Positions 31,313 through 57,717 are shown, numbered from the stretch's first letter. The stretch is 64,000 bases of DNA from Vicinamibacterales bacterium (GCA_965223015.1 CBDCVL010000004.1:129237-193236); one strand, 5' to 3'. A program made the numbers and translations. The notes: a model not told the origin generated them from the letters alone.

Positions 31313-32191
31313 CTATTCACGCTTTCCCTCCTCAAGTATCTGGTAGACCGAGCGTGCACTCAGGCCATACTTCCGGGCAATCTGGGTGACAGCCGCACGC
31401 CTTGTAGGAGTTAAATTGGTTAAACGACCAAATTCGTTCAACACGTCCTGTTTCGAAGGGGCTTCCTTCTTCTCTGTGGTTGGGTAAATGACGATCGTAA
31501 ACTCCCCACGGGGCTGGACGAAGTGGGATAAGGCGACCGAAATAGGTCCTATGACCAATTCTTCGTGGATCTTTGTCAACTCCCTGCACACTGCCACCTC
31601 ACGATCTCCGAGAGTTTCCAGCATATCGGTCAATAAACCTAATATCCTGTGGGGGGCCTCGAAGACGACAAGGGGTCCTTGCTCCAAATGGAGTGCCTGG
31701 AGCCACTTCTTTCTGGCCAACGACCTATTAGGTGGGAATCCGACGAACGTGAATCGGTTTCCGGTCAGACCCGATGCAACGAGAGCGGCGAGAACCGCGC
31801 TCGCTCCTGGAACTGGTGTTACCTGGATACCAAGGCCGAGGGCCGCCTTGACCAATGCTCCTCCGGGATCTGACAGAAGCGGTGTTCCAGCATCAGAGAC
31901 CAGGGCGATCGATTGGCCCTGTTCGAGCATGGTGAGCAATCTGGGGGCCTTTTGGTGCTCGTTGTGTTCGTGAAAGCTGAGCGTTGGAGTTTGAATGCCG
32001 TAGTGCTTCAGGAGCCTCGCTGTGCGCCGGGTATCCTCTGCGGCGACGATCGTAACTTCTCCCAGAATGCGGACTGCACGAAACGTCAGATCTTCGAGGT
32101 TGCCGATCGGCGTCGCGACAACGTACAGAACACCCCCTGGCTTCGCTGGACGGGAAGGCGACGGACGTTGGGTGGGGCGGCGTTCGGCCAC
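31313..32191 (-). CDS. rsmI: 16S rRNA (cytidine1402-2'-O)-methyltransferase RsmI
   Basis: 292-aa ORF with LYVVATPIGNLEDLTFRAVRIL and AEDTRRT. Confidence 0.9.
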   Translation of the reverse strand: MAERRPTQRPSPSRPAKPGGVLYVVATPIGNLEDLTFRAVRILGEVTIVAAEDTRRTARLLKHYGIQTPTLSFHEHNEHQKAPRLLTMLEQGQSIALVSDAGTPLLSDPGGALVKAALGLGIQVTPVPGASAVLAALVASGLTGNRFTFVGFPPNRSLARKKWLQALHLEQGPLVVFEAPHRILGLLTDMLETLGDREVAVCRELTKIHEELVIGPISVALSHFVQPRGEFTIVIYPTTEKKEAPSKQDVLNEFGRLTNLTPTRRAAVTQIARKYGLSARSVYQILEEGKRE

Positions 32192-32273
32192 AGGGTCAGA
32201 AAAGACTCATCATTGTAACATTCAGGGCGGCCCGCCTAGGAAGACCTCGCCGGTCCGTCTGGAAGACGCGCGT

Positions 32274-33935
32274 ATGAAGCGATCTCGATCCGGCCGCTCG
32301 GCCGAACCGCTGTCACACTTCGTCGACGAGTATTTGGCCTACTTGCAGGAAACCAATCCCACGGAGGCTGCGTTCGACGGGTGTCACCTGCACGATGACC
32401 TGTTGGACGACTTCTCACGAGAGTCGATCGATTCCCAGGCGCGCGACCTCGGCGGGTGGGTGCGGCGTCTGGAAGGTATCCACGTCGGTTCGTTGATGCC
32501 GGAGGAACGGATTGAGCATCGGGTGCTCGCAGACAGCATCCGCGCTCGACTGTTCAAGCTGGAAGAGCTACGGCCGTGGCAGCGCAGCCCGCTGCATTAT
32601 GCCGAGACACTCGCGAGCAGTGTTGCGGTCCAAGTGCTGTTTGCGCATGCGCCTGTTGCGGAACGCGCCCGGCGCATTGTGTCGAAACTGCGGCAGGCGC
32701 CTCGACTCTTGGAGGCAGCGGAGAAGAACGTCACCGATCCTCCTGGACTCTTCGCCAAGGTCGGGATCGAGGCACTGGAGGGCGTCCTGCAGTTCATCGA
32801 GCAAGATCTCCCGCGTGCGTTTAGAGACCTCGACGACATGCACTTACTCGGTGATCTCGCCGATGCGTCGACCGTCGCGGTCGATTCCCTCCGCGGCTAT
32901 ATCACCCACCTCCGTGAGTCAGTCGCGCCGCGAAGCCGGGCGTCGTTTCGCTTGGGAGCCGACAAATTCTCCCAGATGCTCAGCCTCACCGAGGGAATCG
33001 ACACTCCGGTCGATCGACTGCTTGAGAGCACGCGCCAGGAGCTGAAGGCGACGCAGGAGGAGTTCAAGCGTGTAGCCAGCACGCTCGGGAGCGACTCCCG
33101 GCAGGTGTGGGAAGAGATCAAGACCCGTCACCCAAGCGCTGAGGAATTGCTGGGTGTCGTCAACGCGCAGCTTCAAGATCTCCTGACGTTCGTCCAGCGG
33201 AATCGCATCGTGACCGTTCCGGACCATCAGCCGGTCCGCGTTGCGCCAACTCCAGAGTTCTACCGCTGGACGTTCGCCAGCATGTGGCCTCCGGGCGTTT
33301 TCGAGACGAAGCCCCTTCCCGCGTACTACTACATCACGAATGTCGACCCGTCATGGCCGAATGAACGCCAGGAAGAACATCTTCGCGACTTCAACCACGC
33401 GACGCTCCCATCGATCTCGATTCACGAAGTCTTTCCAGGTCATTTTCTGCACTTCGAACATTTGCGCCGTTTGGAGAAGCCCCTTCGGAAGTCATCGTTC
33501 TTCATGCCGATCTCGCTGGTTGAGGGATGGGCCCACTATTCGGAGCAATTGATGTTCGACCAGGGTTTCGAGAAGGGAAATGCCGAGTTCAGGCTGGGGC
33601 AGCTGGCGGAGGCGCTGATTCGGCTGGCTCGCACGGTCGTCGGGATCAGGCTGCACACTGAAGACCTTTCGGTGGAGCAGGGCGTGCGGATTTTTCGGGA
33701 CGAAGCGTTCCTCGAGGAGAGCAACGCCCGGCGGGAGGCAGAGCGCGGGACGTTCGATCCCCAGTACGTGCTCTACTCGATCGGGAAGCAGATGCTTCTG
33801 CGGTTGCGGTCCGACTGCGAAGCCAAGTTGGGAGCTAGCTTCTCGATGTCTCAGTTCCACGATCAACTGCTCGGGCAGGGCGTCCTGCCATTCTGGGCGC
33901 ATCGCGAGCTCATGCTCGGCGAGCCCCGGGCATGA
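32274..33935 (+). CDS. DUF885 family protein (metallopeptidase-like)
   Basis: Contains SIHEVFPGHFLHFEH and EGWAHYSEQLM. I place the start at ATG 32274 (MKRSRSG) because the track start at 32022 overlaps rsmI on the other strand. Confidence 0.8.
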   Translation: MKRSRSGRSAEPLSHFVDEYLAYLQETNPTEAAFDGCHLHDDLLDDFSRESIDSQARDLGGWVRRLEGIHVGSLMPEERIEHRVLADSIRARLFKLEELRPWQRSPLHYAETLASSVAVQVLFAHAPVAERARRIVSKLRQAPRLLEAAEKNVTDPPGLFAKVGIEALEGVLQFIEQDLPRAFRDLDDMHLLGDLADASTVAVDSLRGYITHLRESVAPRSRASFRLGADKFSQMLSLTEGIDTPVDRLLESTRQELKATQEEFKRVASTLGSDSRQVWEEIKTRHPSAEELLGVVNAQLQDLLTFVQRNRIVTVPDHQPVRVAPTPEFYRWTFASMWPPGVFETKPLPAYYYITNVDPSWPNERQEEHLRDFNHATLPSISIHEVFPGHFLHFEHLRRLEKPLRKSSFFMPISLVEGWAHYSEQLMFDQGFEKGNAEFRLGQLAEALIRLARTVVGIRLHTEDLSVEQGVRIFRDEAFLEESNARREAERGTFDPQYVLYSIGKQMLLRLRSDCEAKLGASFSMSQFHDQLLGQGVLPFWAHRELMLGEPRA

Positions 33936-33984
33936 TTGATTGAGGATGTTGTTCGGCCAGTGCACTAAGATTGACGTTGAATTC

Positions 33985-34344
33985 ATGCCCCTGTATGAGT
34001 ACAAGTGTGACGCGTGCGGCCATCAGTTCGAACTGATCCAGAAGTTCTCCGATCCCCTTGCCTCGACCTGCCCCGAGTGCGGCGCCGCCGTACGCAAGCT
34101 GGTGTCGTCGCCGGCCTTTCAGCTCAAGGGCACCGGTTGGTACGCCACCGACTTCGCTGGCAAGCCAGGCGCTGACAAGAAGGACTCGTCGATAGAGGAG
34201 TCCGCATCGACGAAGAAGGACTCGTCGGACGCGTCGGACACCTCAAAGAAGAAGGACTCAGGCGACAAGAAAACTGGCGACTCGAAGTCGACGCAGACCC
34301 CTTCCTCGACGAAGTCGTCACCCACCGCGGCACCGAAGAAATAG
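33985..34344 (+). CDS. FmdB-family zinc-ribbon protein with a Ser/Lys/Asp-rich tail
   Basis: MPLYEYKCDACGHQFELIQKFSDPLASTCPECGAAVRKL carries the CxxC...CxxC ribbon typical of the family. Confidence 0.8.
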   Translation: MPLYEYKCDACGHQFELIQKFSDPLASTCPECGAAVRKLVSSPAFQLKGTGWYATDFAGKPGADKKDSSIEESASTKKDSSDASDTSKKKDSGDKKTGDSKSTQTPSSTKSSPTAAPKK

Positions 34345-34355
34345 CGGCGTTCGCT

Positions 34356-35225
34356 CTACTCCAACGACGCGAGATACTCACGCAGCGATGGTGCCAGGTC
34401 GGGGCGAGAGAGCCCAAAGTAGGTTAGGGCTTTCAGGTACCCCAGCGTCGTCCCGACGTCGTGGCGCACTCCGGATAGCTCGCAGGCATACAGCTGGCGG
34501 TGCTGGAGCAGTCGCCGTAGGCCGTCGGTGAGCTGAATCTCTCCGCCCGCGTCTGAGCCGGTGTCTTCGAGCGCCCCGAAGAGATCTGGGGTGAGCACAT
34601 ACCGCCCGACCACGCCGAGGTCGGATGGAGCCTTGTCAGGCGCTGGCTTTTCGACGAGGTCGCGGACCTCATAGACGCCGTGACGGATCGGTATTGGGTC
34701 GATGATGCCGTAGCGGCTGACCGCGTCTCGGGGCACTCGCTCGACCAGCACCACCGGCCCGTTGAGCTCAGCGAAGACGTCGCATAGCTGTCGTAGTGCC
34801 GGAGGGTCAGCATCGATCACGTCGTCGGGTAACGCAACGGCGAACGGCGCGTCACCCACCGCGTCCTTGGACATGAGGACGGCATGTCCGAGACCGAGAG
34901 GAGCCGATTGATGGACTGTCGTGACATTAGCCATGGCCGTCACGGCGCGGATGGCCTCCAGCGCCTCGACCTTGCCACGTTCCTCCAGGAGTGCCTCGAG
35001 CTTCGGGTTGGGCGCGAAGTGAGCGGCTGTCATCGTGTTGTCGGGGCTCGTCACGAGAACGACCTCGCGAATCCCGGATCTCACCGCCTCTTCGACGCCA
35101 TACTGGATGACCGGGCGGTCGACCAGTGGAAGCAGCTCCTTTGGAAACGCTTTCGTCGCAGGCAGAATACGTGTTCCGAGGCCCGCTGCCGGGAACACGA
35201 CGGTCCTGGGGGTAGTCGTTCCCAT
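34356..35225 (-). CDS. galU: UTP--glucose-1-phosphate uridylyltransferase
   Basis: From ATG 35225 the sequence reads MGTTTPRTVVFPAAGLGTRILPATKAFPKELLPLVDRPVIQY. The 109 upstream codons of the track ORF have no family similarity. Confidence 0.9.
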   Translation of the reverse strand: MGTTTPRTVVFPAAGLGTRILPATKAFPKELLPLVDRPVIQYGVEEAVRSGIREVVLVTSPDNTMTAAHFAPNPKLEALLEERGKVEALEAIRAVTAMANVTTVHQSAPLGLGHAVLMSKDAVGDAPFAVALPDDVIDADPPALRQLCDVFAELNGPVVLVERVPRDAVSRYGIIDPIPIRHGVYEVRDLVEKPAPDKAPSDLGVVGRYVLTPDLFGALEDTGSDAGGEIQLTDGLRRLLQHRQLYACELSGVRHDVGTTLGYLKALTYFGLSRPDLAPSLREYLASLE

Positions 35226-35240
35226 GTCGGCTGATCGTAC

Positions 35241-35408
35241 CTTAGTACTGCGTTTCACAATTGCGGCAACGCATTGACCAGCGATGCATCCGGCCTCGCG
35301 GCGTTGCTCGTTGGTCGAATACTCCCGGTATTCTCCCTCCTCGCGCCTGGCGAGCCGGGCGCCTCGCCGGCCGAATACGTCACCATAATTGTGAAACGCA
35401 GTACTTAG
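35241..35408. repeat. 168-bp multi-hairpin element bounded by a 22-bp inverted repeat
   Basis: CTTAGTACTGCGTTTCACAATT (35241-35262) pairs with AATTGTGAAACGCAGTACTTAG (35387-35408) at 21 of 22 positions. Inner stems are GCAACGC/GCGTTGC (35266-72 / 35301-07), GAATAC/GTATTC (35317-22 / 35328-33) and GGCGAG/CTCGCC (35349-54 / 35363-68). Confidence 0.8.
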
Positions 35409-35481
35409 TCGAACCATCGCCGCACGAGCGCGAGAGGTCCGTCTACAATTGTGCGGACCGAACGGAAGGAATTGCGACACG

Positions 35482-36774
35482 ATGCTCGATCCTGTCCTGC
35501 TCCGGGAGCAACCAGATGATGTTCGTGCCCGACTCGAACAGCGCGGCGTCAATCTTCGCGATCAGCTCAATTTTCTGACGCGCCTCGACGCAGAGCGCCG
35601 GGAGATCTTGCCGCTGCTCGAGAACGCCCGGCATGCTCGCAAGGAGGTCGGCAGCAAGATCGCCCAGGCGAAGAAGGCGGGAGGCTCGCCCGACGAGCTA
35701 CTGAAGGCGGGCCAACTGTACAGCGAGCAAATCAGAGAGCAGGAAACGAAGCTCGAGAAGGTCGAACGCGAACGGTTTGAGCTGTCGCTGACGCTTCCCA
35801 ACCTTCCGCACGTGAGCGTTCCGGTTGGCAGGACTGAGGCCGAGAATCATGAGGTCCGTCGTTTTGAGGAGCCTCCGACGTTCAGCTTCGAGCCACGGCC
35901 CCACTGGGATCTAGGGCCGGAACTCGGGATCATGGATTTCGAGCGCGGCGCCAAGATAGCTCGCTCGCGCTTCACGGTGCTCCTTGGGGCCGGTGCACGG
36001 CTCGAGCGAGCCCTGATCAACTTCATGCTTGACCTGCACACAGCCGAGCACGGCTACACGGAGGTCGAACCTCCGTTTCTTGCGAATGCGGACGCGCTGA
36101 CCGGGACCGGAAATCTTCCCAAGTTCGAGGACGACCTATTCAAGGTTCGTGGCGATTGGGGGCTCTACCTGATTCCGACTGCCGAGGTTCCGCTGTGCAA
36201 CCTGCACCGCGACGAGATACTTGACGGCTCTGCGCTCCCGATCCGCTATGTGGCGTACACACCGTGCTTTCGAAGCGAAGCCGGATCGTACGGCAAGGAC
36301 GTGCGGGGTCTGATTCGTCAGCATCAGTTCGACAAGGTGGAGTTGGTCGCATACGCGACGCCCGAGAAGTCGTACGAGGTCCACGAGGAATTGACAGGCC
36401 ACGCAGAGGAGGTGCTTCGGCGCCTCGGTCTTCCCTTCCGGACGGTCGTGCTGTGCACCGGCGACATGGGGTTTGCTGCGGCGAAGACATATGACCTGGA
36501 GGTTTGGCTCCCAGGTCAGAACGCGTATCGAGAGATCTCTTCGTGCAGCAATACAGAGGCCTTCCAGGCTCGGCGCGCGAATATCAGGTTCCGGAAGGAG
36601 GGAACGAAGGGAAAGCCGGCACTCGTCCACACGCTCAATGGTTCTGGCGTTGCCGTTGGCCGCGCGCTGATCGCGGTCGTGGAGAACTATCAGCAGGCAG
36701 ACGGATCCGTCGCGATCCCCGAGGTATTGCGTCCGTACATGCGGGGCCAGGAGGTAATCGAGCCCGTGAGGTAG
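35482..36774 (+). CDS. serS: Seryl-tRNA synthetase
   Basis: From ATG 35482 the sequence reads [22 protein letters not shown]. Class II motifs are present ([38 protein letters not shown]). Confidence 0.95.
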
Positions 36775-36804
36775 AGCGGCAAGTCTACTAGGGCAGAACT
36801 CAAA

Positions 36805-36894
36805 GGAGGGATGGCCGAGCGGTTGAAGGCGGCGGTCTTGAAAACCGTTGAACGTGAAAGCGTTCCCTGGGTTCGAATCCCAGTCCCTCCGCCA
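36805..36894 (+). tRNA. tRNA-Ser (anticodon UGA), with encoded CCA
   Basis: Hand-folded cloverleaf: acceptor GGAGGGA/TCCCTCC, anticodon arm GCGGT-CTTGAAA-ACCGT, a long variable arm, T arm CTGGG-TTCGAAT-CCCAG, and a GCCA end. Confidence 0.95.
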
Positions 36895-37194
36895 CTACAC
36901 ACGAGTTAAATGACTTAAAATAAGATAGTTAGCATATGGAATCGCTATAGATCCCACCTTTTACCCCACAATTGCTGCTGGCTTCTTCGGGCTCTTACTG
37001 GACTTTGATGGACACGCGAGGCGTTGTGCCAGCCGTCGCGAGCTGGCTCTGCTCAGAGAGATCGGACAGCGCGTCGGTAACGTCCCCACCATCAAGTTGA
37101 TCATGCGTACCGGAATCGTCGGCGCGTCAGTAGCACGGCAGCAGAAGATGAGGACGCTGGCTCGTCTTCGGAAGGATCTCGACGCCGGTCCGTA

Positions 37195-37812
37195 TCAGCG
37201 ACCGCCGATGCCGTCCACGATCCGCTCAGCTTCAGCCCGTGTGAAATCACCGTTGATCTTCGCCGATGCGCCGATGATGGCTCTGACAACCGGGGCCATG
37301 ACCACCACCCCGTCAATCAGGATCGCGACCGGCTTCCCGATGTGGCTCGCCGTGGCCTGCCGTATCTTCTGCGTGCCTGCCGCATCGAACTCCACGGCGA
37401 CGCTGAAACGTGACGCCCCGTCGCCCGGAACGACGCGGCTCTGCGCGATATCATCATTCGTGACGATGATCTCGTCGTGCAGATAAATCACACGGTCCGA
37501 CCCGTCTGCCCGTACCCCCCGCAGACCTGGGGCTGGCTGATCCTCTGCGAGCCGCACTTCAAATCTAATCTGCGCTTGCAGCGTCGCGCCTTCTTGTGGC
37601 CAGAGCTGCGAACCAAGGGACATAATGCCGACCACGATCAATGCGACGGTCACCACCAGGGCGATGGGTGAAGGAGCCCATCGGGAAGACGGAGTGATGA
37701 CGCCAGATGCGCCAACGACTGCCTGACGAAGTCGATCACGCTCCTGCTCGAGCCGGTCAGGTTCGTGGCGAAGTGGGTCGGCCTCTCGCAAGGTGTCTCT
37801 AACGGTCTTCAT
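37195..37812 (-). CDS. Putative anti-sigma factor: short cytoplasmic N-terminus, one TM, periplasmic SecD-P1-head-like domain
   Basis: 205-aa ORF overlapping the sigma gene stop by 14 nt. The TM segment is IALVVTVALIVVGIMSL. The C-terminal KPVAILIDGVVVMAPVVRAIIGASAKINGDFTRAEAERIV resembles the SecD/SecF periplasmic head motif. Confidence 0.6.
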   Translation of the reverse strand: MKTVRDTLREADPLRHEPDRLEQERDRLRQAVVGASGVITPSSRWAPSPIALVVTVALIVVGIMSLGSQLWPQEGATLQAQIRFEVRLAEDQPAPGLRGVRADGSDRVIYLHDEIIVTNDDIAQSRVVPGDGASRFSVAVEFDAAGTQKIRQATASHIGKPVAILIDGVVVMAPVVRAIIGASAKINGDFTRAEAERIVDGIGGR

Positions 37813-38359
37813 TGGTGTCTCCCATCTGAGGGTTTACGACGCGAGCCAGCGCGCGGCGACCGACGGACAGATGCCAGCGAACGGTGACATCGCTGATCCC
37901 GAGCAACGATGCAATCATTGAAGTCGTTCGCCCCTCGAGCTCGTGCATGACAACGACGGCGCGACGACGTGGCGGCAACGTGGCAAGGGCGCGCCACACG
38001 GTCTCTCGTGCGATGAAGGCCGCTTCCTGGTTGGCCTCCACTCGCGCGGGGTCGTTTATGTCTCGGTCATGCCGCTGACGACCTCCTATCTTGCGCCACT
38101 GATCGCGTTGGATATTGACGAGCACACGGACGAGCCAGGCCTCCTCACTCGCCATGCCAAGGGGCACAGCCGCGCGGGAGCGAGCGACCTTGAGGAAGGT
38201 GTCCTGTACCAGGTCCAGTGCGTCGTCCGCGTTCGTTGTGAGACGCCGGGCGAGGCGATACAGTCGCTCGTAATGCGCATCGAAGAGGGCAGCCAGCCGA
38301 TCAGCCCGAGGGTCTGGCAAGGCGACCGGAAGGTCTCGGTCCAGTGGCAGCCCGTTCAT
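37799..38359 (-). CDS. ECF (sigma-70 family group 4) RNA polymerase sigma factor
   Basis: 186 aa. Region 2 is LYRLARRLTTNADDALDLVQDTFLKV. Region 4 is LPPRRRAVVVMHELEGRTTSMIASLLGISDVTVRWHLSVGRRAL. Confidence 0.9.
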   Translation of the reverse strand: MNGLPLDRDLPVALPDPRADRLAALFDAHYERLYRLARRLTTNADDALDLVQDTFLKVARSRAAVPLGMASEEAWLVRVLVNIQRDQWRKIGGRQRHDRDINDPARVEANQEAAFIARETVWRALATLPPRRRAVVVMHELEGRTTSMIASLLGISDVTVRWHLSVGRRALARVVNPQMGDTNEDR

Positions 38360-38368
38360 ACCTGTCTA

Positions 38369-38392
38369 GACGACTGACGCCCGGGTTTTGTT
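38369..38392 (-). promoter_or_regulatory. Candidate ECF-type promoter (AAC-N17-CGTC) for the sigma gene
   Basis: The minus strand reads cAACaaaacccgggcgtcagtCGTCtagacaggtATG. The -10-like CGTC ends 9 nt before the start codon, implying a very short or absent leader. Confidence 0.3.
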
Positions 38393-38549
38393 GGTGAGCT
38401 GCCGGCGCTGCGATCGGCCGTCTGGGACGGCGGGACACCGTGGTCACGAAGAGCCGCGCGTTGGGTCCGGACGAGAATCGTGATCGCCTGCTGCGGTGAT
38501 GCCCCTCGGTCGATAGACAGGCCAGACCATGCTATCAGGAGGGACCGCT

Positions 38550-38918
38550 ATGAAACGCCTACTTCTATCCGTCGTGGTCGCCAGTCTTCTGAGCGTTGCC
38601 GTCGCGGCCCAGGAGGCCATCGCCTTTGAGCTGGAGCTGTATCAGAACGCGACCCTGATTGCGTCTCCAACCGTCAAAGTCAGAGACGGCGAAACGGGAT
38701 CGGTTCGTCTTCTCGATCTGTTCAACCTCGCGTTCACGCCCAACCAACTCGACAACGAGATGATCGCCGTCAGCTTCGAGATCCAGAACGGGACCAGGAC
38801 GCTCACGCCGCAGATGGTCCTCGATCGTGCACAGACAGGGACCCTCAACTGGATCACCGCCAATAATGATGGCGACCGGGAGCAGCTCGAAGTAAGGATC
38901 ACTGCCGTGGGCTCCTGA
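38550..38918 (+). CDS. Small secreted protein of unknown function, divergent from the ECF operon
   Basis: Signal peptide MKRLLLSVVVASLLSVAVAAQEA. The mature part of about 100 aa has an alternating beta-strand-like pattern and no family I can name. Confidence 0.55.
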   Translation: MKRLLLSVVVASLLSVAVAAQEAIAFELELYQNATLIASPTVKVRDGETGSVRLLDLFNLAFTPNQLDNEMIAVSFEIQNGTRTLTPQMVLDRAQTGTLNWITANNDGDREQLEVRITAVGS

Positions 38919-39036
38919 CTCCATCGGTCGGAGTGACTCGATTCGCGTTGCGCATGCAGTTCACGGATCTACCTTCAAGAGGCGCTGGAGAATCACGGTC
39001 GTGGCCGGCCGCTATGGACAGTAGAATGGTCTCGTC

Positions 39037-39258
39037 GTGTTGGCACAACTGATCGACCTCTACACGCTCATCGTGTTCGGTGCCGTCATTATTTCCTGGG
39101 CCCAGCTCCCGCCGACGCGCACCGTGGCGATCGTCCTGCACACGCTGACTGAGCCGGTACTCAATCCCGTTCGCCGCGTGCTGCCACCAATGGACGGTCC
39201 TCGACTTCTCGCCCTTCGTGCTGCTGGTCGACCGCAGTTCGTTAGACGACTGCTCTAA
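39037..39258 (+). pseudogene. yggT: YggT-family membrane protein with an apparent internal frame disruption
   Basis: The N-terminal part LIDLYTLIVFGAVIISW...LTEPVLNPVRRVLPPM fits YggT. The conserved following motif LDFSPFVLLV is encoded in the +1 frame (39197 onward), while the annotated frame reads GPRLLALRAAG. Confidence 0.55.
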
Positions 39259-39389
39259 CGTTACACGGTGCCGGAAGGGCACCATCCGCTAATGACCCCC
39301 GGGCGCGATCCAGAGAATCCGAGAGTCTACACTCGTCCGAGAGGCTGGACCTGATAGGGAGCGCTCGCCCTTGGCCTGTTCGCGTGGAC

Positions 39390-39433
39390 TACGAGGTCTT
39401 TCGTATTGACATCTACGAAGATCGTCGTAGAAT
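39390..39433 (+). promoter_or_regulatory. Near-consensus sigma-70 promoter with two tandem TACGA-N6-TCGTA dyads (candidate BlaI operators)
   Basis: The -35 TTGACA is at 39406-39411, followed by a 16-nt spacer and the -10 TAGAAT at 39428-39433. Dyad 1 spans 39390-39405 and dyad 2 spans 39414-39429, with centres 24 bp apart. The -10 ends 7 nt before ATG 39441, consistent with a leaderless mRNA. Confidence 0.55.
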
Positions 39434-39440
39434 GGGTGTC

Positions 39441-39821
39441 ATGATGGCACGTCGCAAGAGACCGACGGATGCGGAGCTCAGGATCCTCCGGGTCTTGTGG
39501 GCACGGGGACGCAGCACCGTCCGAGAGGTGGCGGAGGATATGGGGCGCAGCGATGCGTATACGACGGTGCTGAAACTCCTTCAGATCATGACGGGAAAGC
39601 GACTCGTTCGCCGGGACGAGTCATCGCGCACCCATGTGTACGACGCCATGCATTCCGAGCATGACACCCAGCGCTTGCTCATCCGCGATTTGATCGACCG
39701 GGCGTTCGACGGGTCGGCTGGGAAGCTGGTGGTCCAGGCGCTCGCGTCGAGCAAGGCATCCCCAGAGGAGCTCGCGGAGATTAAGAAGCTGATCGGCACG
39801 CGGCGGAGAGGCACACGGTGA
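39441..39821 (+). CDS. BlaI/MecI/CopY-family winged-helix repressor
   Basis: MMARRKRPTDAELRILRVLWARGRSTVREVAEDM... and a C-terminal dimerisation helix. Its stop overlaps the start of the BlaR1-like gene (GTGA). Confidence 0.85.
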   Translation: MMARRKRPTDAELRILRVLWARGRSTVREVAEDMGRSDAYTTVLKLLQIMTGKRLVRRDESSRTHVYDAMHSEHDTQRLLIRDLIDRAFDGSAGKLVVQALASSKASPEELAEIKKLIGTRRRGTR

Positions 39822-41797
39822 ACCACATGATCGATGTCGCTGGTTGGACGCTCCTTCACTTCGTCTGGCAAGGCGCTGCACTCGCGATGGTGACAGCAGC
39901 GGCGTTGAGATGCTGCCGACGCAGCACTCCAGACGCGCGCTATGCCATTGCCTGTGTCGGCTTCGTGTCCATGCTCGGTGCGCCCGTCGTCACCGCAGGG
40001 GTTCTGTGGTCGCCGACAGTGGACTTCACGTTCGGTGTAGGCGGGTCTCCAGCCGTTGTCACACAGGAGACCGTGCCAGTGGGGGTAAGCAATTGGGTCG
40101 ACATCACCTTCTCGATGTTGACCGTCCGCGCTGGCGTCGACGCCGTACTCCCGCTGGTGGTTGTGACGTGGCTCTGCGGCGTCACGCTGCTGCTCGTCAG
40201 GATGGCGGGCGGGCTCTGGCGCGTGCGTCAACTGCAGATGCTGTCCCTCGCGACGACCGCATCACGCTGGCAAGGTGCAAGCGCGCGATTGGCCTCGCGT
40301 CTCGGCGTGCGTGTACCGGTCCACGTGGTGGACACGACACGGGTCGAGACTCCGACCGCGGTCGGCTGGCTGCGTCCCGCGATCCTGCTGCCCATTGCCG
40401 CCCTCGCGAATCTGACACCGTCCCAGGTCGAAGCCATTCTTGCGCACGAGCTTGTCCATATCCGGCGCCATGACTACGTCGTGAACGTGCTACAGACGTT
40501 GGCCGAGACCCTGTTGTTCTATCACCCGGCTGTGTGGTGGGTGTCGAGCCGTATCCGCGTCGAACGTGAGCACTGTTGTGACGACGCGACGGTGGAGCTG
40601 TGCGGTGATGCCGTCAACTACGCGACGGCCCTCACGGAGCTGGAAGCCTTCCGGTCTGGAGACACGGGCCTAGCCGTGGCGGCCACGAGCGGGTCCCTGC
40701 GCCACCGGGTGCACCGTATCCTGGGAACCCCGCCCGAACGTGACCCGCGCTCACTGAGCTGGGAAGTGACCTTTGTATTGACGCTGGTCTTGGTTGGCGG
40801 GGCTGCAGCCATCGGACTTCCATCGCGTGGGCTGATGAGCCGAGGAGAGGCAGCCGAAGTCACGCAGGGCATCCAGCCAACGGCCTCGCCTGATGGGCAG
40901 GAGTGGGAGGTCCGTGCCACTGAGCACTTCGACATCCTCTACTACCCGTCGCTCACCGACGATCTCCCGCGAATCGAAGCACTCGCACAGCGAGCCTATG
41001 ATCGCGTGAGCGCTGAGATGGCGTATGACCTCGGGTTCAGGGTGCCGCTGATGCTATACAAGACCCGTGACGACTTCGAGCAGCAGACCGTGGCTCCAGG
41101 CGCAATGCTCACGGGAGTTCGTTCCTTCACGGAACCGCAGCGGAACACGATCGTCCTGCTCGTCGATGAGATGCGTGAGGAGCTTCCCACTCGGATCACT
41201 CACGAGCTGACCCATGTCTTCATGTTCGTCATGATCCCCCGCTCCCCGATCCGGTCGACCGTTCCGCTCTGGCTCGATGAAGGCCTGGCCGACTACATCA
41301 CGGGCGTGTGGCCGCCAAACGACGTCGAGCTGCTCCGGTGGGTCGTCGCCTCGGACCGCGTGCCATCGATGAACGAGTATGGGGACTACGGCCAGTTCGA
41401 GAATCCGCGGACGACTTATGCGTTGGGGCATGCGGTCTTCGATTTCGTTGAGGAACAATGGGGCAAAGAGGCTATCCGCCAGTACCTCGTTGGTTTTGGG
41501 CCGAGTTCCTTCGGCACAAGTGGGAGCGTGTATCAACAAGCGTTCGGTGTGACACCGGATGAGTTCGATGAATCATTCGAACGATACCTCCGCACGCGAT
41601 TCACACCACAGTCGCTGCCTCCGGTGGGATCTCCCGCGTTGGCCCGGAGCATCGAGTTCAGCTTTCCGACGCAAGACGGACAACCGCGGGGGAACGTAGG
41701 GTCTTATGTTGCGCAACTCGAAATCCCACAGCGCGTCAGCCGACCCTCACAGGACGTGTGGGTGCCCTACGAGGGAGTCAAGCCCATTCTTAGTTGA
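39818..41797 (+). CDS. BlaR1/MecR1-like M56 membrane metalloprotease fused to a second MA-clan metalloprotease-like domain; 3' end cut by IS256
   Basis: The M56 motif is ILAHELVHIRRHDY after 4 TM segments. The extracytoplasmic part carries a second HExxH (RITHELTHVF) plus WLDEGLADYITG. The stop codon at 41795 lies inside the IS256 terminal repeat. Confidence 0.8.
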   Translation: MNHMIDVAGWTLLHFVWQGAALAMVTAAALRCCRRSTPDARYAIACVGFVSMLGAPVVTAGVLWSPTVDFTFGVGGSPAVVTQETVPVGVSNWVDITFSMLTVRAGVDAVLPLVVVTWLCGVTLLLVRMAGGLWRVRQLQMLSLATTASRWQGASARLASRLGVRVPVHVVDTTRVETPTAVGWLRPAILLPIAALANLTPSQVEAILAHELVHIRRHDYVVNVLQTLAETLLFYHPAVWWVSSRIRVEREHCCDDATVELCGDAVNYATALTELEAFRSGDTGLAVAATSGSLRHRVHRILGTPPERDPRSLSWEVTFVLTLVLVGGAAAIGLPSRGLMSRGEAAEVTQGIQPTASPDGQEWEVRATEHFDILYYPSLTDDLPRIEALAQRAYDRVSAEMAYDLGFRVPLMLYKTRDDFEQQTVAPGAMLTGVRSFTEPQRNTIVLLVDEMREELPTRITHELTHVFMFVMIPRSPIRSTVPLWLDEGLADYITGVWPPNDVELLRWVVASDRVPSMNEYGDYGQFENPRTTYALGHAVFDFVEEQWGKEAIRQYLVGFGPSSFGTSGSVYQQAFGVTPDEFDESFERYLRTRFTPQSLPPVGSPALARSIEFSFPTQDGQPRGNVGSYVAQLEIPQRVSRPSQDVWVPYEGVKPILS

Positions 41798-43189
41798 AAC
41801 TCTCCACGGCTCCTGATCATTACGCTGCCTTCGTGTTCGGGGTCTTCCTTTCGATCTTCAGTTCCCGCTGCAATGCTTCGCGAAGCTTCGGAAGGTGGCG
41901 GTAGCCCACCACCTTGCGGAGGCGCGGTTCGATGTCGACGAGCGCCGTCGCCAGCCACCGCTGGCGCTGGCTCGAGTTCGTCCACTGGTCGACTTTGGCG
42001 CAGCGTTCCTCGACCAGCGCATTGACGGACTCGAGACAGTTGGTTGTCTTGAACGAGCGTCCCAGCACGGCAGAGACGCCGAGTCGGTGCAAGGTCAGGG
42101 TCTCGTCCAGGCCCTCCGCCAGACTGCCGGCGGCCGACTGGTTCCGGTCGTCCAACTCGCCGTGGAGCTGCTCGAGGGCCGCCAGGGCCTCGGGGTACGT
42201 CGGGCGGTTGTAGGCTCGCTGGAGGCGCCGGCGCCAGTCCCCCTGCTCGCTCTTGGGTAGGTAGCTCACCACGTTCTCGCGCTTGTGCCACTGGCAACGG
42301 TGCACCAACGCCGTGTCGCGGAACACCTTCTTGACCGCAGATCGCAGGCCCTTGCCACCGTCGAGAATCACGAGCAGACCTTGCGACGCATCAAGACCGC
42401 GGTCGACCAGCGAACGAAGGAAGGGCGCCAGGATCTGCGCGGTCTCCGTGTCCGTCTCCACGAAGCCAAGGAAGCGTTTCTCCCCTGAAATCGTGATGCC
42501 GAGAGCGATGACCATCGTCGAATCGGCGAAGGCCTTGCCGTCCAGGAACAGGGCCACGACGTCCTCACCGGACAGGTCCCGCTCCTGAAACTCCCGCAGC
42601 GTCGCCGCACTGGCTTGGATGAAATTCCGAGACACCGTGGAGCTCGACAATCCGATCGCCCCGGGGACCGACTCAGCCGCCGCCGCGTAGTTGCGGCAGG
42701 AGATGCCGTAGAGCACCCGCTTCAGCAGGACGTCATTTACCTGGCTGTCCTCCCGCGCCGCCTCGTAGGAACGCAGGGGAATCTCGCCGCCCGCAACGCT
42801 GCGCACGCGCGGCACTCGCAGCGGTACGCGTTGGCCAGCGAGGCGCACCGTCCCGGGGTTGCTTCCGTGACGTCGTCCCCGCACCAACGACTCTTTGCGC
42901 GCATGACGAGCACCGGCCAACTCCGTGACCTCGTCATCGAGCAGCTCCTGGACGTGCATCAGGCCCAGCGGCACCAAGGCTCGAATCATTTCCACCTTGG
43001 CGTCCACATCGAACCCGGCGTACTCCTCGCGCCTGATGATGTCCACCTTCCCCAGACGACGGGACTTCTTGCGTTTCCTGACTGATCGTAGGACACTGCG
43101 CATCTCGGCTCCTTTCTCTTGCGGGTTGATGAGCTCTTCGCAACGTCATCACACCACAGGGCTTGGAGCCGTTTCAATTTTCAACTAAG
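41789..43189 (-). mobile_element. IS256-family insertion sequence (1401 bp by my boundaries)
   Basis: The imperfect terminal inverted repeats are CTTAGTTGAAACTCTCCACGGCTCC (41789-) and GGAGCCGTTTCAATTTTCAACTAAG (-43189). There is a single mutator-type transposase gene and no obvious target duplication. Confidence 0.8.
41820..43103 (-). CDS. IS256-family (mutator-type) transposase
   Basis: 427-aa ORF with VVALFLDGKAFADSTMVIALGITISGEKRFLGF and CQWHKRENV. Confidence 0.9.
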   Translation of the reverse strand: MRSVLRSVRKRKKSRRLGKVDIIRREEYAGFDVDAKVEMIRALVPLGLMHVQELLDDEVTELAGARHARKESLVRGRRHGSNPGTVRLAGQRVPLRVPRVRSVAGGEIPLRSYEAAREDSQVNDVLLKRVLYGISCRNYAAAAESVPGAIGLSSSTVSRNFIQASAATLREFQERDLSGEDVVALFLDGKAFADSTMVIALGITISGEKRFLGFVETDTETAQILAPFLRSLVDRGLDASQGLLVILDGGKGLRSAVKKVFRDTALVHRCQWHKRENVVSYLPKSEQGDWRRRLQRAYNRPTYPEALAALEQLHGELDDRNQSAAGSLAEGLDETLTLHRLGVSAVLGRSFKTTNCLESVNALVEERCAKVDQWTNSSQRQRWLATALVDIEPRLRKVVGYRHLPKLREALQRELKIERKTPNTKAA

Positions 43190-43441
43190 TTTGGCACACC
43201 CTCCTACGAGGCAGCGGAAGCGGTTGTTCGACCGGATGCCGAGCGCCTCTGGAACACGGGAATCTTTGAGAGCCTGTGGGTCGACGTGAGGGATGAGCCC
43301 TACCCGAACGGCGTCATGGGAAAGCGGATCGTCTTTAGTCTGGTCGAGCGAGAGGGTGAGCCGGTTGTTCCGACCGGGCCGCCGATACTCCCGGCGGGCT
43401 TCGAGGATCCTGCAGCTGACCACGAGAGGCTCTATCCGTGA
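43190..43441 (+). pseudogene. Displaced 3' fragment of the BlaR1-like gene with a POTRA-like segment
   Basis: The fragment reads FGTPSYEAAEAVVRPDAERLWNTGIFESLWVDVRDEPYPNGVMGKRIVFSLVERE. It is in the same frame as 39818..41788 once 41789..43189 is removed. The IS30 copy starts 40 bp after its stop. Confidence 0.5.
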
Positions 43442-43480
43442 GCTCAACGCTTACTTCAGCTCTCAGGGCGGTCCTTTGTT

Positions 43481-44689
43481 CTCGCATTCAACCGGTCGAT
43501 GCAACGGATTCCGCGAGTATATCTGCCGGCGTCCGATAGCCGAGTGTCTTGCGTGGCCGCGTATTGAGCTCGCGCGCGATCCGATTCAGTTGAGTCTGCG
43601 TGTAGCGGGCGAGGTCGGTCCCCTTCGGCAGATACTGGCGCAGCAAGCCATTCGTGTTCTCGTTGGTCCCGCGCTGCCACGGACTGTACGGGTCGCAGAA
43701 ATAGACTTGCACGCCGGTGGCGATCGAGAACGTGCGATGGGCTGCCAGTTCCAGGCCGCGATCCCAGGTCAACGTGGCCATGAGGCCGGCGGGCAACCGC
43801 CGCACGTGCTCGGTGAGCGCTCGCACGACCGTGCGCGTCGTGCGCCCGGTCAGCCGGACGAGACAGACGTAGCGCGAGTGCCGCTCGACTAGCGTCGCCA
43901 CGTAGGACTGGCGCGCGCCGGCGATCAGGTCGCCCTCCCAATGTCCCGGCACGGCGCGGTCCTCCACCGTCGCGGGGCGCTCGCGAATCGAGACGGCCCC
44001 GACGATGTAACCGCCCGTCTTCGGCGCCGTGGCACGCGGACGTCGCATCGTGCGTCGTTGGCGCAACTGCGCCTGCAGTGCCTTTTTGAGCACGCCGCGG
44101 CTCTGCACGAACAGGCTCAGGTAGATCGTTTCGTGCGACACGTGCATCGTCGGATCATCAGGATACGCCTGACGGAGCCAGCCGGCGATCTGTTGAGGCG
44201 ACCACTTCTGCGCGAGCTTCGTGGCCACCGCGTCACGGAGGGGGGGGTGGGTCACCAAGCGACACCGCTTGGGCCGCCGGCCGCGCGCCCACGCCGCCGC
44301 GTCGGCTCTGGCCGCCCGATACCACCGCCGCCCTCCGTGTCGACGCACCTCCCGACTCACGGTCGAAGGGGCGCGCCGCAGCTGGCGGCTGATCTGTCGC
44401 ACCGACGTCCCGCGGGCCAGGCCGCGGGAGATGGCCTCCCGCTCCGGCAGCGTCAGCGCGAGACGGGAACGTTGGCGCGCCGGCGGGGGGATGCCGCCCG
44501 TCCGGGCCACCTCATAGCGCACCATCTTGGGAATCCGGCCTAGGGCACGGCCGATGGCATTGAGCGATTCCCCGTGTCGCCACCGGCGCCACACTTCCGC
44601 CTTCTGCGCCGCCGTCAAGCGCGGACCACGTCGTCGCACCATGAAACCTCCTTATCAGGTTCATGTTGCATCGACCCATTGAACGCACC
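43481..44689 (-). mobile_element. IS30-family insertion sequence, copy 1 (intact)
   Basis: The ends are defined by comparison with copy 2: CTCGCATTCAACCGGTCGATGCAAC (43481-) and the reverse complement of GGTGCGTTCAATGGGTCGATGCAAC (-44689). Confidence 0.9.
43488..44642 (-). CDS. IS30-family DDE transposase
   Basis: 384-aa ORF with HWEGDLIAG, TLTWDRGLE and YFCDPYSPWQRGTNENTNGLLRQYLPKGTDL. Confidence 0.9.
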   Translation of the reverse strand: MVRRRGPRLTAAQKAEVWRRWRHGESLNAIGRALGRIPKMVRYEVARTGGIPPPARQRSRLALTLPEREAISRGLARGTSVRQISRQLRRAPSTVSREVRRHGGRRWYRAARADAAAWARGRRPKRCRLVTHPPLRDAVATKLAQKWSPQQIAGWLRQAYPDDPTMHVSHETIYLSLFVQSRGVLKKALQAQLRQRRTMRRPRATAPKTGGYIVGAVSIRERPATVEDRAVPGHWEGDLIAGARQSYVATLVERHSRYVCLVRLTGRTTRTVVRALTEHVRRLPAGLMATLTWDRGLELAAHRTFSIATGVQVYFCDPYSPWQRGTNENTNGLLRQYLPKGTDLARYTQTQLNRIARELNTRPRKTLGYRTPADILAESVASTG

Positions 44690-44867
44690 CGCCTAGCGTT
44701 TACTAATCCGGCCCAAGGGTGTCGGACTCAGCATCGGTCTACACAACGGCGTTAGGCAAGAGTAGTCCAAGCTCTCCGGTGTCAGGCTACGAGGCAAGCG
44801 ACACGACGAGCTGACTCAGCTCGCAGCAAGTCGACACACGCTGCTTCAAGAAGAGTCCGCCGCAGGC

Positions 44868-45440
44868 TCAGTCCGACAGCGCCCGTACCAGGAGCGGCAG
44901 GCTGACGTCATAGCGGTAGGCAAGGGACATGTGGCCGTCATCGAACTCCTCGTAGAACGGGGAAAGCCCGCGGTCTCGCATTCTTGCGACGAGGGCGCGC
45001 GCACCCCAATGGAGTGAAAACTCATCTTGGTTGCCGCAGTCCACGTAGATGAGCCGCAGCTTCCGCAGGTTGTCCGCGTAGCGTTCGACCAGCCGCACCG
45101 GGTCCCATTCCATCCAGCGCTGCCACACATCCCAGCGAAATTCCCCGCTTGCGAGCTCGAAGGGCAGGTCAATGCCCAGGTGTGGGGGATCCGGGTTCGG
45201 CGAATAGTGAGCGGACATCGCGAGAAAGTTCAGCGCCTTCTGCCACTTCTTGCGACGACGATTGTCGTCAGTCCCAAAAGTGTCGAGCCAGGCCTTTGGC
45301 CCACCGGCCTCGCGAAATTGGTCCAACGCCTCGGAGGCATCCGGAATGTAGCAAAGCTCGAAGTTGGCGTCCCCTGAATGGTCTGCCAGCGCCTTGAACA
45401 CGTGAGAACGGCGGAGTAACACTAGACCACAGAGCGGCGG
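44868..45440 (-). pseudogene. Esterase-family (alpha/beta hydrolase) gene, C-terminal fragment only
   Basis: HVFKALADHSGDANFELCYIPD...IYVDCGNQDEFSLHWGARALVARM...DDGHM. The upstream half of the 300-aa track ORF is merely antisense to the IS21 remnant. The 5' limit is approximate. Confidence 0.55.
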
Positions 45441-45527
45441 TGTGACGCGGCCTGAGGGCGGTGGAAAACCAGACCGCTCACGTGGTCCACCGAGCATTCC
45501 AAGGGTGTTTTGTGGAACACAGGAGGG

Positions 45528-45976
45528 ATGTATCGAGTGGAACTCTATGCGGCGGTGCGGCGCAGCGTGTATGTGGAGGGATTGAGCGAGCGCACGGCGG
45601 CGCGCCGCTTCGGGTTGGCCCGCGAGACGGTGCGCAAGATGCTGCGCTACCGCCGGCCGCCCGGGTATCGCCGGGCGCAACCGGTCCGGCGTCCGAAGCT
45701 GGACGCCTTCACGGGGATCATTGATCAGATCCTCCGCGAGGATCAGTCCCGGCCGAAGAAGCAACGGCACACGGCCAAGCGCATCGGCGAGCGCTTACGC
45801 GCGGAGTACGGGTTCACGGGCGGCGACACGATCGTGAAAGCCTACGTGCGCGCGCAGCGGCTGGGCGGGCAGGAGATGTTCGTGCCGCTGGCCCATCCGC
45901 CAGGCGACGCCCAAGCCGACTTCGGCGAAGCGCTGGTCGTGATCGCTGGCGTCGAATGCAAGGCGCACTCCCTGGT
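45528..45976 (+). mobile_element. IS21-family remnant: istA N-terminal about 150 codons, truncated by an IS3 element
   Basis: MYRVELYAAVRRSVYVEGLSERTAARRFGLARETVRKML...FVPLAHPPGDAQADFGEALVVIAGVECKAH. A few codons after the IS3 element (47238-47266, ..YFVLSRT*) may be its continuation. The rest of istA and all of istB are absent. Confidence 0.7.
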
Positions 45977-46017
45977 TGGACTTGCCCCGGTTTCGTGGAC
46001 GGGTACGGACTTGGGTT

Positions 46018-46872
46018 TCAAGCACTCTGCGGCAGCTGTCTCCTCTCGTAGTTGATGGGTGAACGATAGCCGAGGGCCGAGTGGCGACGGTGCGGATTGT
46101 ACCAGCCCTCCAGCCACTGGAAGATCGCCATCCGCGCTTCGGCCTGGCTGCGGAACCGTCGCCGGTTGAGCACTTCGCGCTCGAGCGTGGCGAAAAAGCT
46201 CTCGGCCATGGCATTGTCATACGCATCGCCGATGGAGCCCATGGAGGGCATCACGCCGGCGTCGCGGCATCGTTTGCCGAAGGCGTAGCTGGTGTACTGG
46301 CACCCGCGATCCGAGTGATGCACGACCGCCTCGGGCCGGCGTTGCGTCAACGCCATGTCGAGTGCGGCGAGCACGAGTTCAGTCCGGAGATGCGTCTCCA
46401 TGGCCCAGCCAACGATGCGTCGCGACCAGACGTCGAGCACGATGGCGAGATAGAGGAAGCCGGCCCACGTCGGGACGTACGTGATGTCGGCCACCCAGAG
46501 ACGATCCGGGCCCGCTGCAGTGAACTCCCGATCCACTTGATCCAGCGCCCGGTCAGCGGTGGGATCGCCGATCGTCGTGGTCACGAAGCGCCGCGGCCGC
46601 AGGCCCTGCAGGCGCGCTGCGCGCATCAGGCGGGCCACACGTTTCTTCCCGACCCGACGGTGGTGATCGTCGGCCAGCTCCGCGTGGATACTCGGCGCCC
46701 CGTACGCGCCGTCCGACCGCCGGTGGATCGCATGGATCAGGGCCGTGAGCCCGATGTCCTCCACGGCCCGTGCCGACGGCGGCCGCCCAGCCCACGCGTA
46801 GAAGCCGCTGGCGGAGACGCCCAGCAGCCGGCCCATGACCCGGACCGGATAGGTGGCCTGATTCGCTTTCAT
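46018..46872 (-). CDS. IS3-family transposase OrfB (rve integrase core)
   Basis: 284 aa with WVADITYVPTWAGFLYLAIVLDVWSRRIVGW, HSDRGCQYTS and GDAYDNAMAESFF. Confidence 0.9.
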   Translation of the reverse strand: MKANQATYPVRVMGRLLGVSASGFYAWAGRPPSARAVEDIGLTALIHAIHRRSDGAYGAPSIHAELADDHHRRVGKKRVARLMRAARLQGLRPRRFVTTTIGDPTADRALDQVDREFTAAGPDRLWVADITYVPTWAGFLYLAIVLDVWSRRIVGWAMETHLRTELVLAALDMALTQRRPEAVVHHSDRGCQYTSYAFGKRCRDAGVMPSMGSIGDAYDNAMAESFFATLEREVLNRRRFRSQAEARMAIFQWLEGWYNPHRRHSALGYRSPINYERRQLPQSA

Positions 46873-56509: not shown

Positions 56510-57717
56510 GGTGCGTTCAATGGGTCGATGCAACATGAACCTGATAAGGAGGTTTCATGGTGCGACGACGTGGTCCGCGCTTGACGGCGGCGCAGAAGGC
56601 GGAAGTGTGGCGCCGGTGGCGACACGGGGAATCGCTCAATGCCATCGGCCGTGCCCTAGGCCGGATTCCCAAGATGGTGCGCTATGAGGTGGCCCGGACG
56701 GGCGGCATCCCCCCGCCGGCGCGCCAACGTTCCCGTCTCGCGCTGACGCTGCCGGAGCGGGAGGCCATCTCCCGCGGCCTGGCCCGCGGGATGTCGGTGC
56801 GACAGATCAGCCGCCAGCTGCGGCGCGCCCCTTCGACCGTGAGTCGGGAGGTGCGTCGACACGGAGGGCGGCGGTGGTATCGGGCGGCCAGAGCCGACGC
56901 GGCGGCGTGGGCGCGCGGCCGGCGGCCCAAGCGGTGTCGCTTGGTGACCCACCCCCCCTCCGTGACGCGGTGGCCACGAAGCTCGCGCAGAAGTGGTCGC
57001 CTCAACAGATCGCCGGCTGGCTCCGTCAGGCGTATCCTGATGATCCGACGATGCACGTGTCGCACGAAACGATCTACCTGAGCCTGTTCGTGCAGAGCCG
57101 CGGCGTGCTCAAAAAGGCACTGCAGGCGCAGTTGCGCCAACGACGCACGATGCGACGTCCGCGTGCCACGGCGCCGAAGACGGGCGGTTACATCGTCGGG
57201 GCCGTCTCGATTCGCGAGCGCCCCGCGACGGTGGAGGACCGCGCCGTGCCGGGACATTGGGAGGGCGACCTGATCGCCGGCGCGCGCCAGTCCTACGTGG
57301 CGACGCTAGTCGAGCGGCACTCGCGCTACGTCTGTCTCGTCCGGCTGACCGGGCGCACGACGCGCACGGTCGTGCGAGCGCTCACCGAGCACGTGCGGCG
57401 GTTGCCCGCCGGCCTCATGGCCACGTTGACCTGGGATCGCGGCCTGGAACTGGCAGCCCATCGCACGTTCTCGATCGCCACCGGCGTGCAAGTCTATTTC
57501 TGCGACCCGTACAGTCCGTGGCAGCGCGGGACCAACGAGAACACGAATGGCTTGCTGCGCCAGTATCTGCCGAAGGGGACCGACCTCGCCCGCTACACGC
57601 AGACTCAACTGAATCGGATCGCGCGCGAGCTCAATACGCGGCCACGCAAGACACTCGGCTATCGGACGCCGGCAGATATACTCGCGGAATCCGTTGCATC
57701 GACCGGTTGAATGCGAG
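56510..57717 (+). mobile_element. IS30-family insertion sequence, copy 2 (inverted relative to copy 1)
   Basis: It has the same terminal sequences as copy 1 and is 1208 bp versus 1209 bp. The differences I saw are C7 (56952-56958) versus the 8-nt run in copy 1 (44240-44247), and one SNP (56792, Thr to Met). Confidence 0.9.
56557..57710 (+). pseudogene. IS30 transposase gene broken by a 1-nt deletion in a poly-C tract
   Basis: The gene splits into track ORFs 56557..57081 and 56874..57710. Both halves are otherwise identical in translation to the 384-aa copy 1 protein, apart from T-to-M. Confidence 0.85.

Follow-up and report, generated by a model that had tools for sequence, protein, structure and literature searches.

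An IS-interrupted BlaI/BlaR-family module with a predicted periplasmic gluzincin domain from a Vicinamibacterales bacterium

What does a BlaR1-like protein do when the place of its penicillin-binding sensor is taken by what appears to be a second metalloprotease? The question is raised by a locus in a 64,000-nucleotide (nt) stretch of a Vicinamibacterales genome assembly (GCA_965223015.1, CBDCVL010000004.1:129237-193236; hereafter the window, with positions counted from its first letter), where a BlaI-type repressor gene overlaps the gene of an M56-family membrane protein that is cut short by an insertion sequence (IS) of the IS256 family. The locus belongs to a BlaI/BlaR variant that is widespread yet uncharacterised, here in a form disrupted by the IS. 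The reading favoured here, to which we give a probability of roughly 0.6, is that of a two-gene, self-repressed proteolytic relay of the BlaI/BlaR type belonging to a Vicinamibacterales-like acidobacterium. A BlaI dimer would bind two operator dyads, O1 and O2, around the -35 and -10 elements and repress its own operon; a peptide or protein would be engaged or cleaved in the cleft of a periplasmic gluzincin domain; this event would be passed through the fourth transmembrane (TM) helix, TM4, switching on the M56 protease; and the latter would inactivate BlaI, so that the operon is de-repressed. The main local output would be more of the sensor-protease itself, since no other dyad target was found within 5 kb of related loci.

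The repressor gene (39441..39821, plus strand) encodes a winged-helix protein that matches Pfam Penicillinase_R (PF03965) with 84.3 bits against a cut-off of 22.6 (E 1e-23), in agreement with its assignment to the BlaI family in the initial annotation, made from the sequence alone. Besides the ATG at 39441 the reading frame offers other in-frame starts at 39432 and 39444, and N-terminal alignment with homologs points to 39441 or 39444. The repressor stop and the start of the BlaR1-like gene overlap in a GTGA (39818-39821), as had been described, and the interrupted open reading frame (ORF) that begins there comprises 659 codons (39818..41797), running into the IS; its genuine part, codons 1-652 (39818..41774, plus strand), is 99.9% identical to the intact gene in three related loci (L001, L123 and L124). 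The adjacent pairing of a repressor with an M56 gene is repeated in L001, L002, L083 and L123. Comparison of these four loci gave no conserved neighbour genes as a clue to the regulon, and no further BlaI/M56 module was found in the window.

The N-terminal half of the membrane protein is a BlaR1 chassis. The segment 39818..40813 (plus strand) encodes a four-TM scaffold with a cytoplasmic M56 zinc-protease domain, recognised by Pfam Peptidase_M56 (PF05569; 93.6 bits, cut-off 31, E 1.6e-26, residues 109-299), whose HExxH motif, HELVH at nt 40445-40459, is invariant in 111 of 111 homologs. In an AlphaFold2 run with these homologs (mean predicted local distance difference test score, pLDDT, 77.8), residues 1-332 form helices matching the cryo-EM structures of Staphylococcus aureus BlaR1 (8exs, 8exq and 8exr; Foldseek, E 1e-5 to 1e-2), and the four TM segments and M56 motif reported earlier for this N-terminus are thus upheld by both Pfam and fold. 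Hydropathy, charge and the positive-inside rule place loops 33-41, 128-160 and 295-313 in the cytoplasm, and hydropathy and charge place loop 65-100 and everything after TM4 (312-338) outside. The predicted topology is that of BlaR1: the chain starts outside, crosses the membrane four times and has its M56 domain in the cytoplasm. Pfam gave no match to the transpeptidase domain (PF00905) in this protein, and the NCBIfam model blaR1_generic covers residues 91-282 only, with a score of 79.5 bits (cut-off 400). The sensor feature that defines BlaR1 and MecR1 is missing, and the locus is not to be called a beta-lactam sensor; in its mechanism it most probably resembles one.

The sensor position is occupied instead by a periplasmic domain (40880..41617, plus strand) for which a weak match to Pfam Peptidase_MA_2, structural comparison and motif conservation together support a second, predicted gluzincin fold of the MA clan, not a penicillin-binding protein (PBP). 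Residues 360-600 are modelled mostly with pLDDT above 90, in a thermolysin-like catalytic fold, and match the catalytic domains of collagenases G and H (4ar1, 7zbv), lugdulysin (7bb8), ERAP, IRAP, PepN and LTA4 hydrolase (Foldseek E 1e-4 to 1e-2, probability 1.00, at a sequence identity of ~10%); searched by sequence against the PDB, the domain gave no significant match to solved structures, only noise. With these clostridial collagenases (M9), lugdulysin (M30) and M1 aminopeptidases it shares the HExxH motif, the downstream glutamate and the predicted fold, and it differs from them in being fused to a signalling chassis. The motif HELTH lies at nt 41201-41215 and is followed by WLDEG (nt 41270-41284), with E488, the putative third zinc ligand, at nt 41279-41281, in the arrangement HELTH-x21-E. 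The set H462-E463-x-x-H466...E488 is complete in 107 of the 111 homologs, and W485, G489, Y493 and H538 are nearly invariant in the same alignment; judged by these residues, the second protease domain looks catalytically competent. A second HExxH module of MA-clan appearance had been proposed at the outset, and both fold and motif bear the proposal out: neither Pfam nor structure prediction gives a PBP or transpeptidase sensor.

This domain is not confined to BlaR-like proteins. A search with the domain alone gave 1,945 clusters (50% identity, E up to 1e-3). Some of them are M56 fusions and some are secreted proteins of ~270 aa; the third context is a large family of 940-1050-aa proteins, in which the gluzincin domain stands between a signal peptide and a TolB/PD40 propeller, with an Omp85/ShlB-like barrel behind the propeller (in P0140, PF01103 with 35.3 bits and TIGR03303 with E 1e-6). 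The N-terminal domain of the latter family is the nearest non-M56 relative of the domain studied here (35-49% identity, E 1e-70 to 1e-26); these proteins, such as P0140, are without M56 domain or TM chassis, are predicted to reside in the outer membrane and are all annotated as 'hypothetical'. The family (P0127, P0131, P0140, P0146, P0159 and others) is widespread and unnamed, and its gluzincin domain opens with a conserved FIPYYGKNK.

The regulatory region is compact. Operator O1 (TACGAGGTCTTTCGTA, 39390-39405, plus strand) directly adjoins the -35 hexamer, and operator O2 (TACGAAGATCGTCGTA, 39414-39429, plus strand) lies within the promoter spacer and overlaps the -10 element; both are exact TACGA-N6-TCGTA dyads, as first reported. 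The promoter (39406..39433, plus strand) is of the sigma-70 type, with TTGACA at 39406-39411, a 16-nt spacer and TAGAAT at 39428-39433; a promoter scan recovered this previously described arrangement, which matches the consensus at 11 of 12 positions and whose -10 element ends 7 nt before the ATG at 39441. No further TACGA-N6-TCGTA was found in the window with up to one mismatch allowed. The spacing suggests that the blaI-operon mRNA is probably leaderless.

How far this design is shared was examined in 82 M56-encoding loci from Acidobacteriota, Planctomycetota, Verrucomicrobiota, Bacteroidota and other phyla, with 5-8 kb flanks (~11 kb per locus, ~0.9 Mb of flanks in all). The strict dyad stands directly upstream of blaI in 63 of the 82 loci, orthologous and paralogous genes included, at a chance expectation of ~0.01 per locus; elsewhere in these flanks dyads are essentially absent. 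In L003-L082 the blaI promoters stand about 400-500 nt before the M56 gene. In 57 of the 63 loci a further dyad, often an imperfect one, lies 20-26 bp upstream of the proximal one (mode 21 bp), and TTGAC or TTGAT is placed between both dyads, just before the proximal one, in 54 of the 63. The layout common to them can be written TACGAAnnnnTTCG-TTGACA-nn-TACGAAnnnnTTCGTA; its -10 element, of the TAnnnT type, starts on the final two bases of the proximal dyad. In orthologs of the gluzincin type the perfect dyads number two or three, at distances of 23-26 bp. The blaI starts fall into two classes, a short one ~13 nt past the dyad, too close for a Shine-Dalgarno sequence to fit, and a long one 39-48 nt past the dyad, with GGAGG before the start. 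The split into two classes supports the view that mRNAs of the short class are leaderless or nearly so, and the blaI start in the window falls in that class (11 or 14 nt past the dyad). The idea of a leaderless, autorepressed transcript put forward at first is therefore plausible for the window gene, given the many related starts at a similar distance, but tandem dyads and a leaderless layout are generic to BlaI/M56 loci of several phyla and not special to it. Boxes of the TACA/TGTA type are bound by BlaI and MecI, and the half-site of the present dyad resembles them as well as that of CopY, whose box is TACAnnTGTA (PMC7253601). Nothing specific on a TACGAA BlaI box was found in the literature. 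Tandem TACGAA-N4-TTCGTA sites around a TTGACA hexamer lend themselves to regulon prediction in Acidobacteriota, Planctomycetota and other phyla, and to straightforward experiments.

With BlaI/BlaR1 and MecI/MecR1 of S. aureus and Bacillus licheniformis the locus shares a winged-helix repressor combined with a four-TM M56 HExxH protein, adjacent and translationally coupled genes, and two palindromic operators of the TAC...GTA type overlapping the promoter, with an autoregulation that is here predicted from sequence. It differs from them in the gluzincin that stands in place of the penicillin-binding/transpeptidase sensor, in having no linked beta-lactamase or PBP2a gene, in the order of the genes, blaI and then blaR, and in its half-site, TACGA versus TACA. 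It also resembles CenIR of Clostridioides difficile and to mycobacterial BlaI/BlaR, which likewise combine a transpeptidase-less M56 protein with an upstream BlaI homolog and are part of the same majority of ~94% of M56 proteins (PMC13492132). The C-terminal region of CenR is short and disordered, whereas the present protein is predicted to carry a well-folded 240-residue gluzincin and a tail module.

The variant is numerous. A search with the full-length protein gave more than 6,000 significant matches, most of which rest on the M56 domain. Among them the 120 best clusters (90% identity) cover 71-100% of the query, and at least 108 of them include the periplasmic domain. Named relatives, mostly from Vicinamibacterales, are annotated as 'M56 family metallopeptidase' or 'beta-lactamase regulating signal transducer with metallopeptidase domain'. 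According to a 2026 study of C. difficile CenIR, a transpeptidase domain is present in only ~6% of roughly 15,000 M56 proteins, these proteins fall into 254 architectures, including M56+M23 and M56+amidase, and ~96% of them lie within five genes of a blaI gene (PMC13492132). M56+MA_2 is not among the architectures with at least 100 entries in that study (PMC13492132), probably because the MA_2 match usually falls below the Pfam threshold. A literature search on the M56-gluzincin family, on M56+MA_2 and on BlaR of Acidobacteria yielded nothing specific. The statement in the initial annotation that no characterised example is known holds to the extent that no paper on the family was found; the architecture itself is common and automatically annotated, and BlaR proteins without a PBP domain are the majority. 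Soil and sediment phyla have very large numbers of BlaR-like M56 proteins. For the study of those that do not sense penicillin the locus offers as handles a folded domain in the sensor position that looks enzymatically competent, a sharply defined operator, and intact and IS-disrupted alleles in near-identical genomes.

Several points weigh against the proposed relay. The Peptidase_MA_2 match (residues 396-561, E 6.7e-7) stays below the cut-off, with 29.7 bits against a gathering score of 32.4. The repressor residues that align, by eye, with the N101-F102 cleavage site of S. aureus BlaI are Q-A. Leaderless transcription is read from spacing, and the regulon could include distant genes beyond the scanned flanks. 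No BlaR-like protein is known to pass a signal from a non-PBP domain to M56.

The best-surviving alternative turns the direction of the system around: the gluzincin would be the output, an inducible, membrane-tethered periplasmic protease in an amount controlled by BlaI, and the cue for the M56/TM part would be a different one, from the membrane or cytoplasm, as has been suggested for the sensor-less mycobacterial BlaR. An operon that seems to regulate only itself locally is in line with such an arrangement, and so are the catalytic residues, conserved as for a working enzyme, and the presence of the domain in ~270-aa secreted and Omp85-type proteins, where sensing of the BlaR kind is impossible; M56 is also commonly fused to the effector-like M23, amidase and TonB_C domains (PMC13492132). 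Yet the domain follows directly after TM4, exactly in the position of the BlaR1 sensor, nothing points to an alternative input, and the roles of sensor and effector can coexist, which leaves the gluzincin as output a possible, if somewhat unlikely, explanation. The initial proposal of a protease relay with a protease as ligand domain accordingly stands in part: a BlaI/BlaR1-type module with a gluzincin is there, while ligand sensing had been inferred, and the domain could equally be an output. As an input, the protease domain would provide an example of protease-to-protease transmembrane signalling; as an output, it would be a compact periplasmic protease able to induce itself. In both cases thousands of genes annotated only as 'M56 family metallopeptidase' would become easier to interpret.

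The inserted IS256-family element is 1428 bp long (41775..43202, minus strand), has imperfect terminal inverted repeats, is absent from L001, L123 and L124, and carries a transposase gene of the Mutator/IS256 type (41820..43103, minus strand; 427 aa; PF00872, E 1e-37). L001 aligns with window positions 37066..41774 and 43203..43481 at 99.3-99.9% identity, L123 and L124 align over 31811..41774 and 43203..45403, and in every case the two segments overlap by 9 bp. Two aligned segments with such an overlap in IS-free relatives define the element as 41775..43202, flanked by the 9-bp target-site duplication CCTACGAGG at 41766-41774 on the left and 43203-43211 on the right. The insertion of an IS256 element into the gene, reported earlier together with the position of the stop codon (41795-41797) inside it, agrees with the transposase match and the empty sites. 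Its boundaries had been set at 41789..43189, because the best-matching inverted-repeat core (41789-41813 / 43165-43189) starts 14 nt inside the true ends; the empty-site alignments and further copies of the element rule these boundaries out, and no duplication is present at those positions. The Mutator-type DDE transposase, the length of ~1.4 kb, the imperfect inverted repeats and a target duplication of 8-9 bp are shared with the IS256 family, and the element departs from it in the outermost 13-14 nt of its two ends, which are poorly symmetrical (~5/13).

The further copies number 39 and come from metagenome contigs (L084-L122) with differing flanks; all begin with GAGTC, corresponding to window position 41775. 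At least 39 copies with different flanks make the element look currently active. No target duplications are evident at the other full copies in the metagenome contigs, likely a result of chimeric assembly across repeats, and no other IS256 copy was found in the window. The contigs derive from marine, sediment and other samples.

The native protein is indeed longer than the interrupted one, as had been supposed: the IS-free near-identical relative P0001, found by protein search (99% identical), has 728 aa, and its sequence across the insertion point reads ...DVWVPYE followed by AAEAVVRPD.... The interrupted allele keeps residues 1-652 and continues with GVKPILS, while the displaced 3' end of the gene (43212..43441, plus strand) encodes native residues 653-728 and the stop, is identical to the C-terminus of P0001 and holds most of the tail module. 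The fusion GVKPI-FGTPSYE postulated before consists of IS sequence plus duplication, and a reconstruction built on it contains 12 spurious residues. The IS thus takes the last 76 residues away and leaves the M56 and gluzincin domains, blaI and the promoter untouched.

This intactness bears on another explanation, by which the locus would be a dead, functionless remnant in an IS-rich region of this genome. The truncation itself, the IS30 element 40 bp downstream with IS21 and IS3 elements behind it, and the split of the gene into 659-aa and 92-aa products in a public annotation, apparently of this genome, both on one 597-kb contig, would suit it. We nevertheless regard a dead remnant as unlikely: the insertion is recent, with flanks 99.8-99.9% identical to intact alleles, all upstream and catalytic parts are preserved, and most family members (~605 aa, ending just past the gluzincin domain) have no tail, so the truncated protein may work.

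The tail (residues about 600-728) is rare. Its 5' portion (41615..41774, plus strand), a disordered linker with the first strand and helix according to the alignment and the AlphaFold2 models, stays on the truncated protein. A search of 5.8 billion sequences gave four homolog clusters only, three of which (P0122-P0124) are complete proteins of 153-172 aa bearing a signal peptide or a lipoprotein signal peptide, and the existence of such stand-alone secreted homologs marks the tail as an independent secreted module. P0122, P0123 and P0124 end in the same H(E/Q)R(L/V)YP motif as the tail. Longer homologs of the BlaR-like protein carry other extensions, namely TonB_C, DUF3738, DUF6152 (weak), PD40, and SurA_N plus ExbD: P0187 has SurA_N before the gluzincin and ExbD/TolR after it, P0157 has DUF3738 and P0134 has PD40 repeats. 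In the ortholog from L002 (55% identical) the tail is found in a +1-shifted, overlapping 83-aa ORF owing to a one-base indel (L002 7940-7971), to be explained either by a mistake in the assembly or by the tail having been lost independently a second time.

A POTRA-like segment had been proposed here. The AlphaFold2 model of P0124 has the order beta-alpha-alpha-beta-beta, with one of five models confident (pLDDT 74.9, the others below 50), and its best Foldseek matches are almost all POTRA domains of BamA or Toc75 (E 0.04 to 1). Sequence searches gave no support for the assignment: there was no POTRA match in Pfam at E up to 10, none by profile against the PDB, and the hhalign comparison with P0140 was empty. 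The proposal lacks HMM and profile support, and the predicted fold makes a POTRA-like tail a reasonable guess.

A bolder version of the relay would make it a sensor of the envelope or of outer-membrane protein (OMP) quality, in which the gluzincin and the POTRA-like tail recognise or clip unassembled beta-barrels or peptides and report through the destruction of BlaI. It is suggested by the gluzincin domain at the head of Omp85-type proteins with a TolB-like propeller, by M56-gluzincin fusions that carry SurA_N, PD40, ExbD or TonB_C, and by the best structural matches of the tail, which are POTRA domains of BamA. We consider it doubtful. If true, it would be an acidobacterial functional counterpart of DegS/RseA-sigma-E, with which it would share no more than the concept of linking a protease-type domain in the periplasm to the destruction of a transcription inhibitor in the cytoplasm; the proteins themselves are unrelated, those of the DegS relay being a serine protease with a PDZ domain, an anti-sigma factor and the site-2 protease RseP.

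The sensor of BlaR1 is itself an acylated, non-turnover relative of PBPs and beta-lactamases. It is nevertheless quite improbable that the second HExxH domain is a non-catalytic pseudo-protease kept for binding or as a scaffold, as four of the 111 homologs that have lost a motif residue and the frequent loss of turnover in enzyme-derived sensor domains might suggest, because the two histidines, the glutamate between them and the distal glutamate are kept in the remaining 107, and Y493 and H538 are nearly invariant, as is typical of active gluzincins.

The surroundings of the module add some minor observations. The region downstream of it is an IS hotspot. Two IS30-family copies, 99.8% identical, occupy 43481-44689 and 56510-57717 of the window, the transposase gene of the first lying at 43488..44642 on the minus strand (HTH_38 and rve domains); this first copy lies 40 bp past the end of the BlaR-like coding sequence, and L123 and L124, which are free of the IS256 element, have it too. 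From 45510-46872 onward there follows an IS21-like element (Mu-transposase_C and IstB in L123) and then IS3-like elements. In L001 the corresponding place is taken by a TonB_C/CarboxypepD_reg gene and a second BlaI/M56 pair. Upstream of the module, at 37195-38359 on the minus strand, an extracytoplasmic function (ECF) sigma factor gene overlaps the downstream gene of a 205-aa SecDF_P1_head-like protein, possibly its anti-sigma partner. The pair is kept only in near-identical relatives and is taken as unrelated to the module, since it is not linked to it in more distant orthologs.

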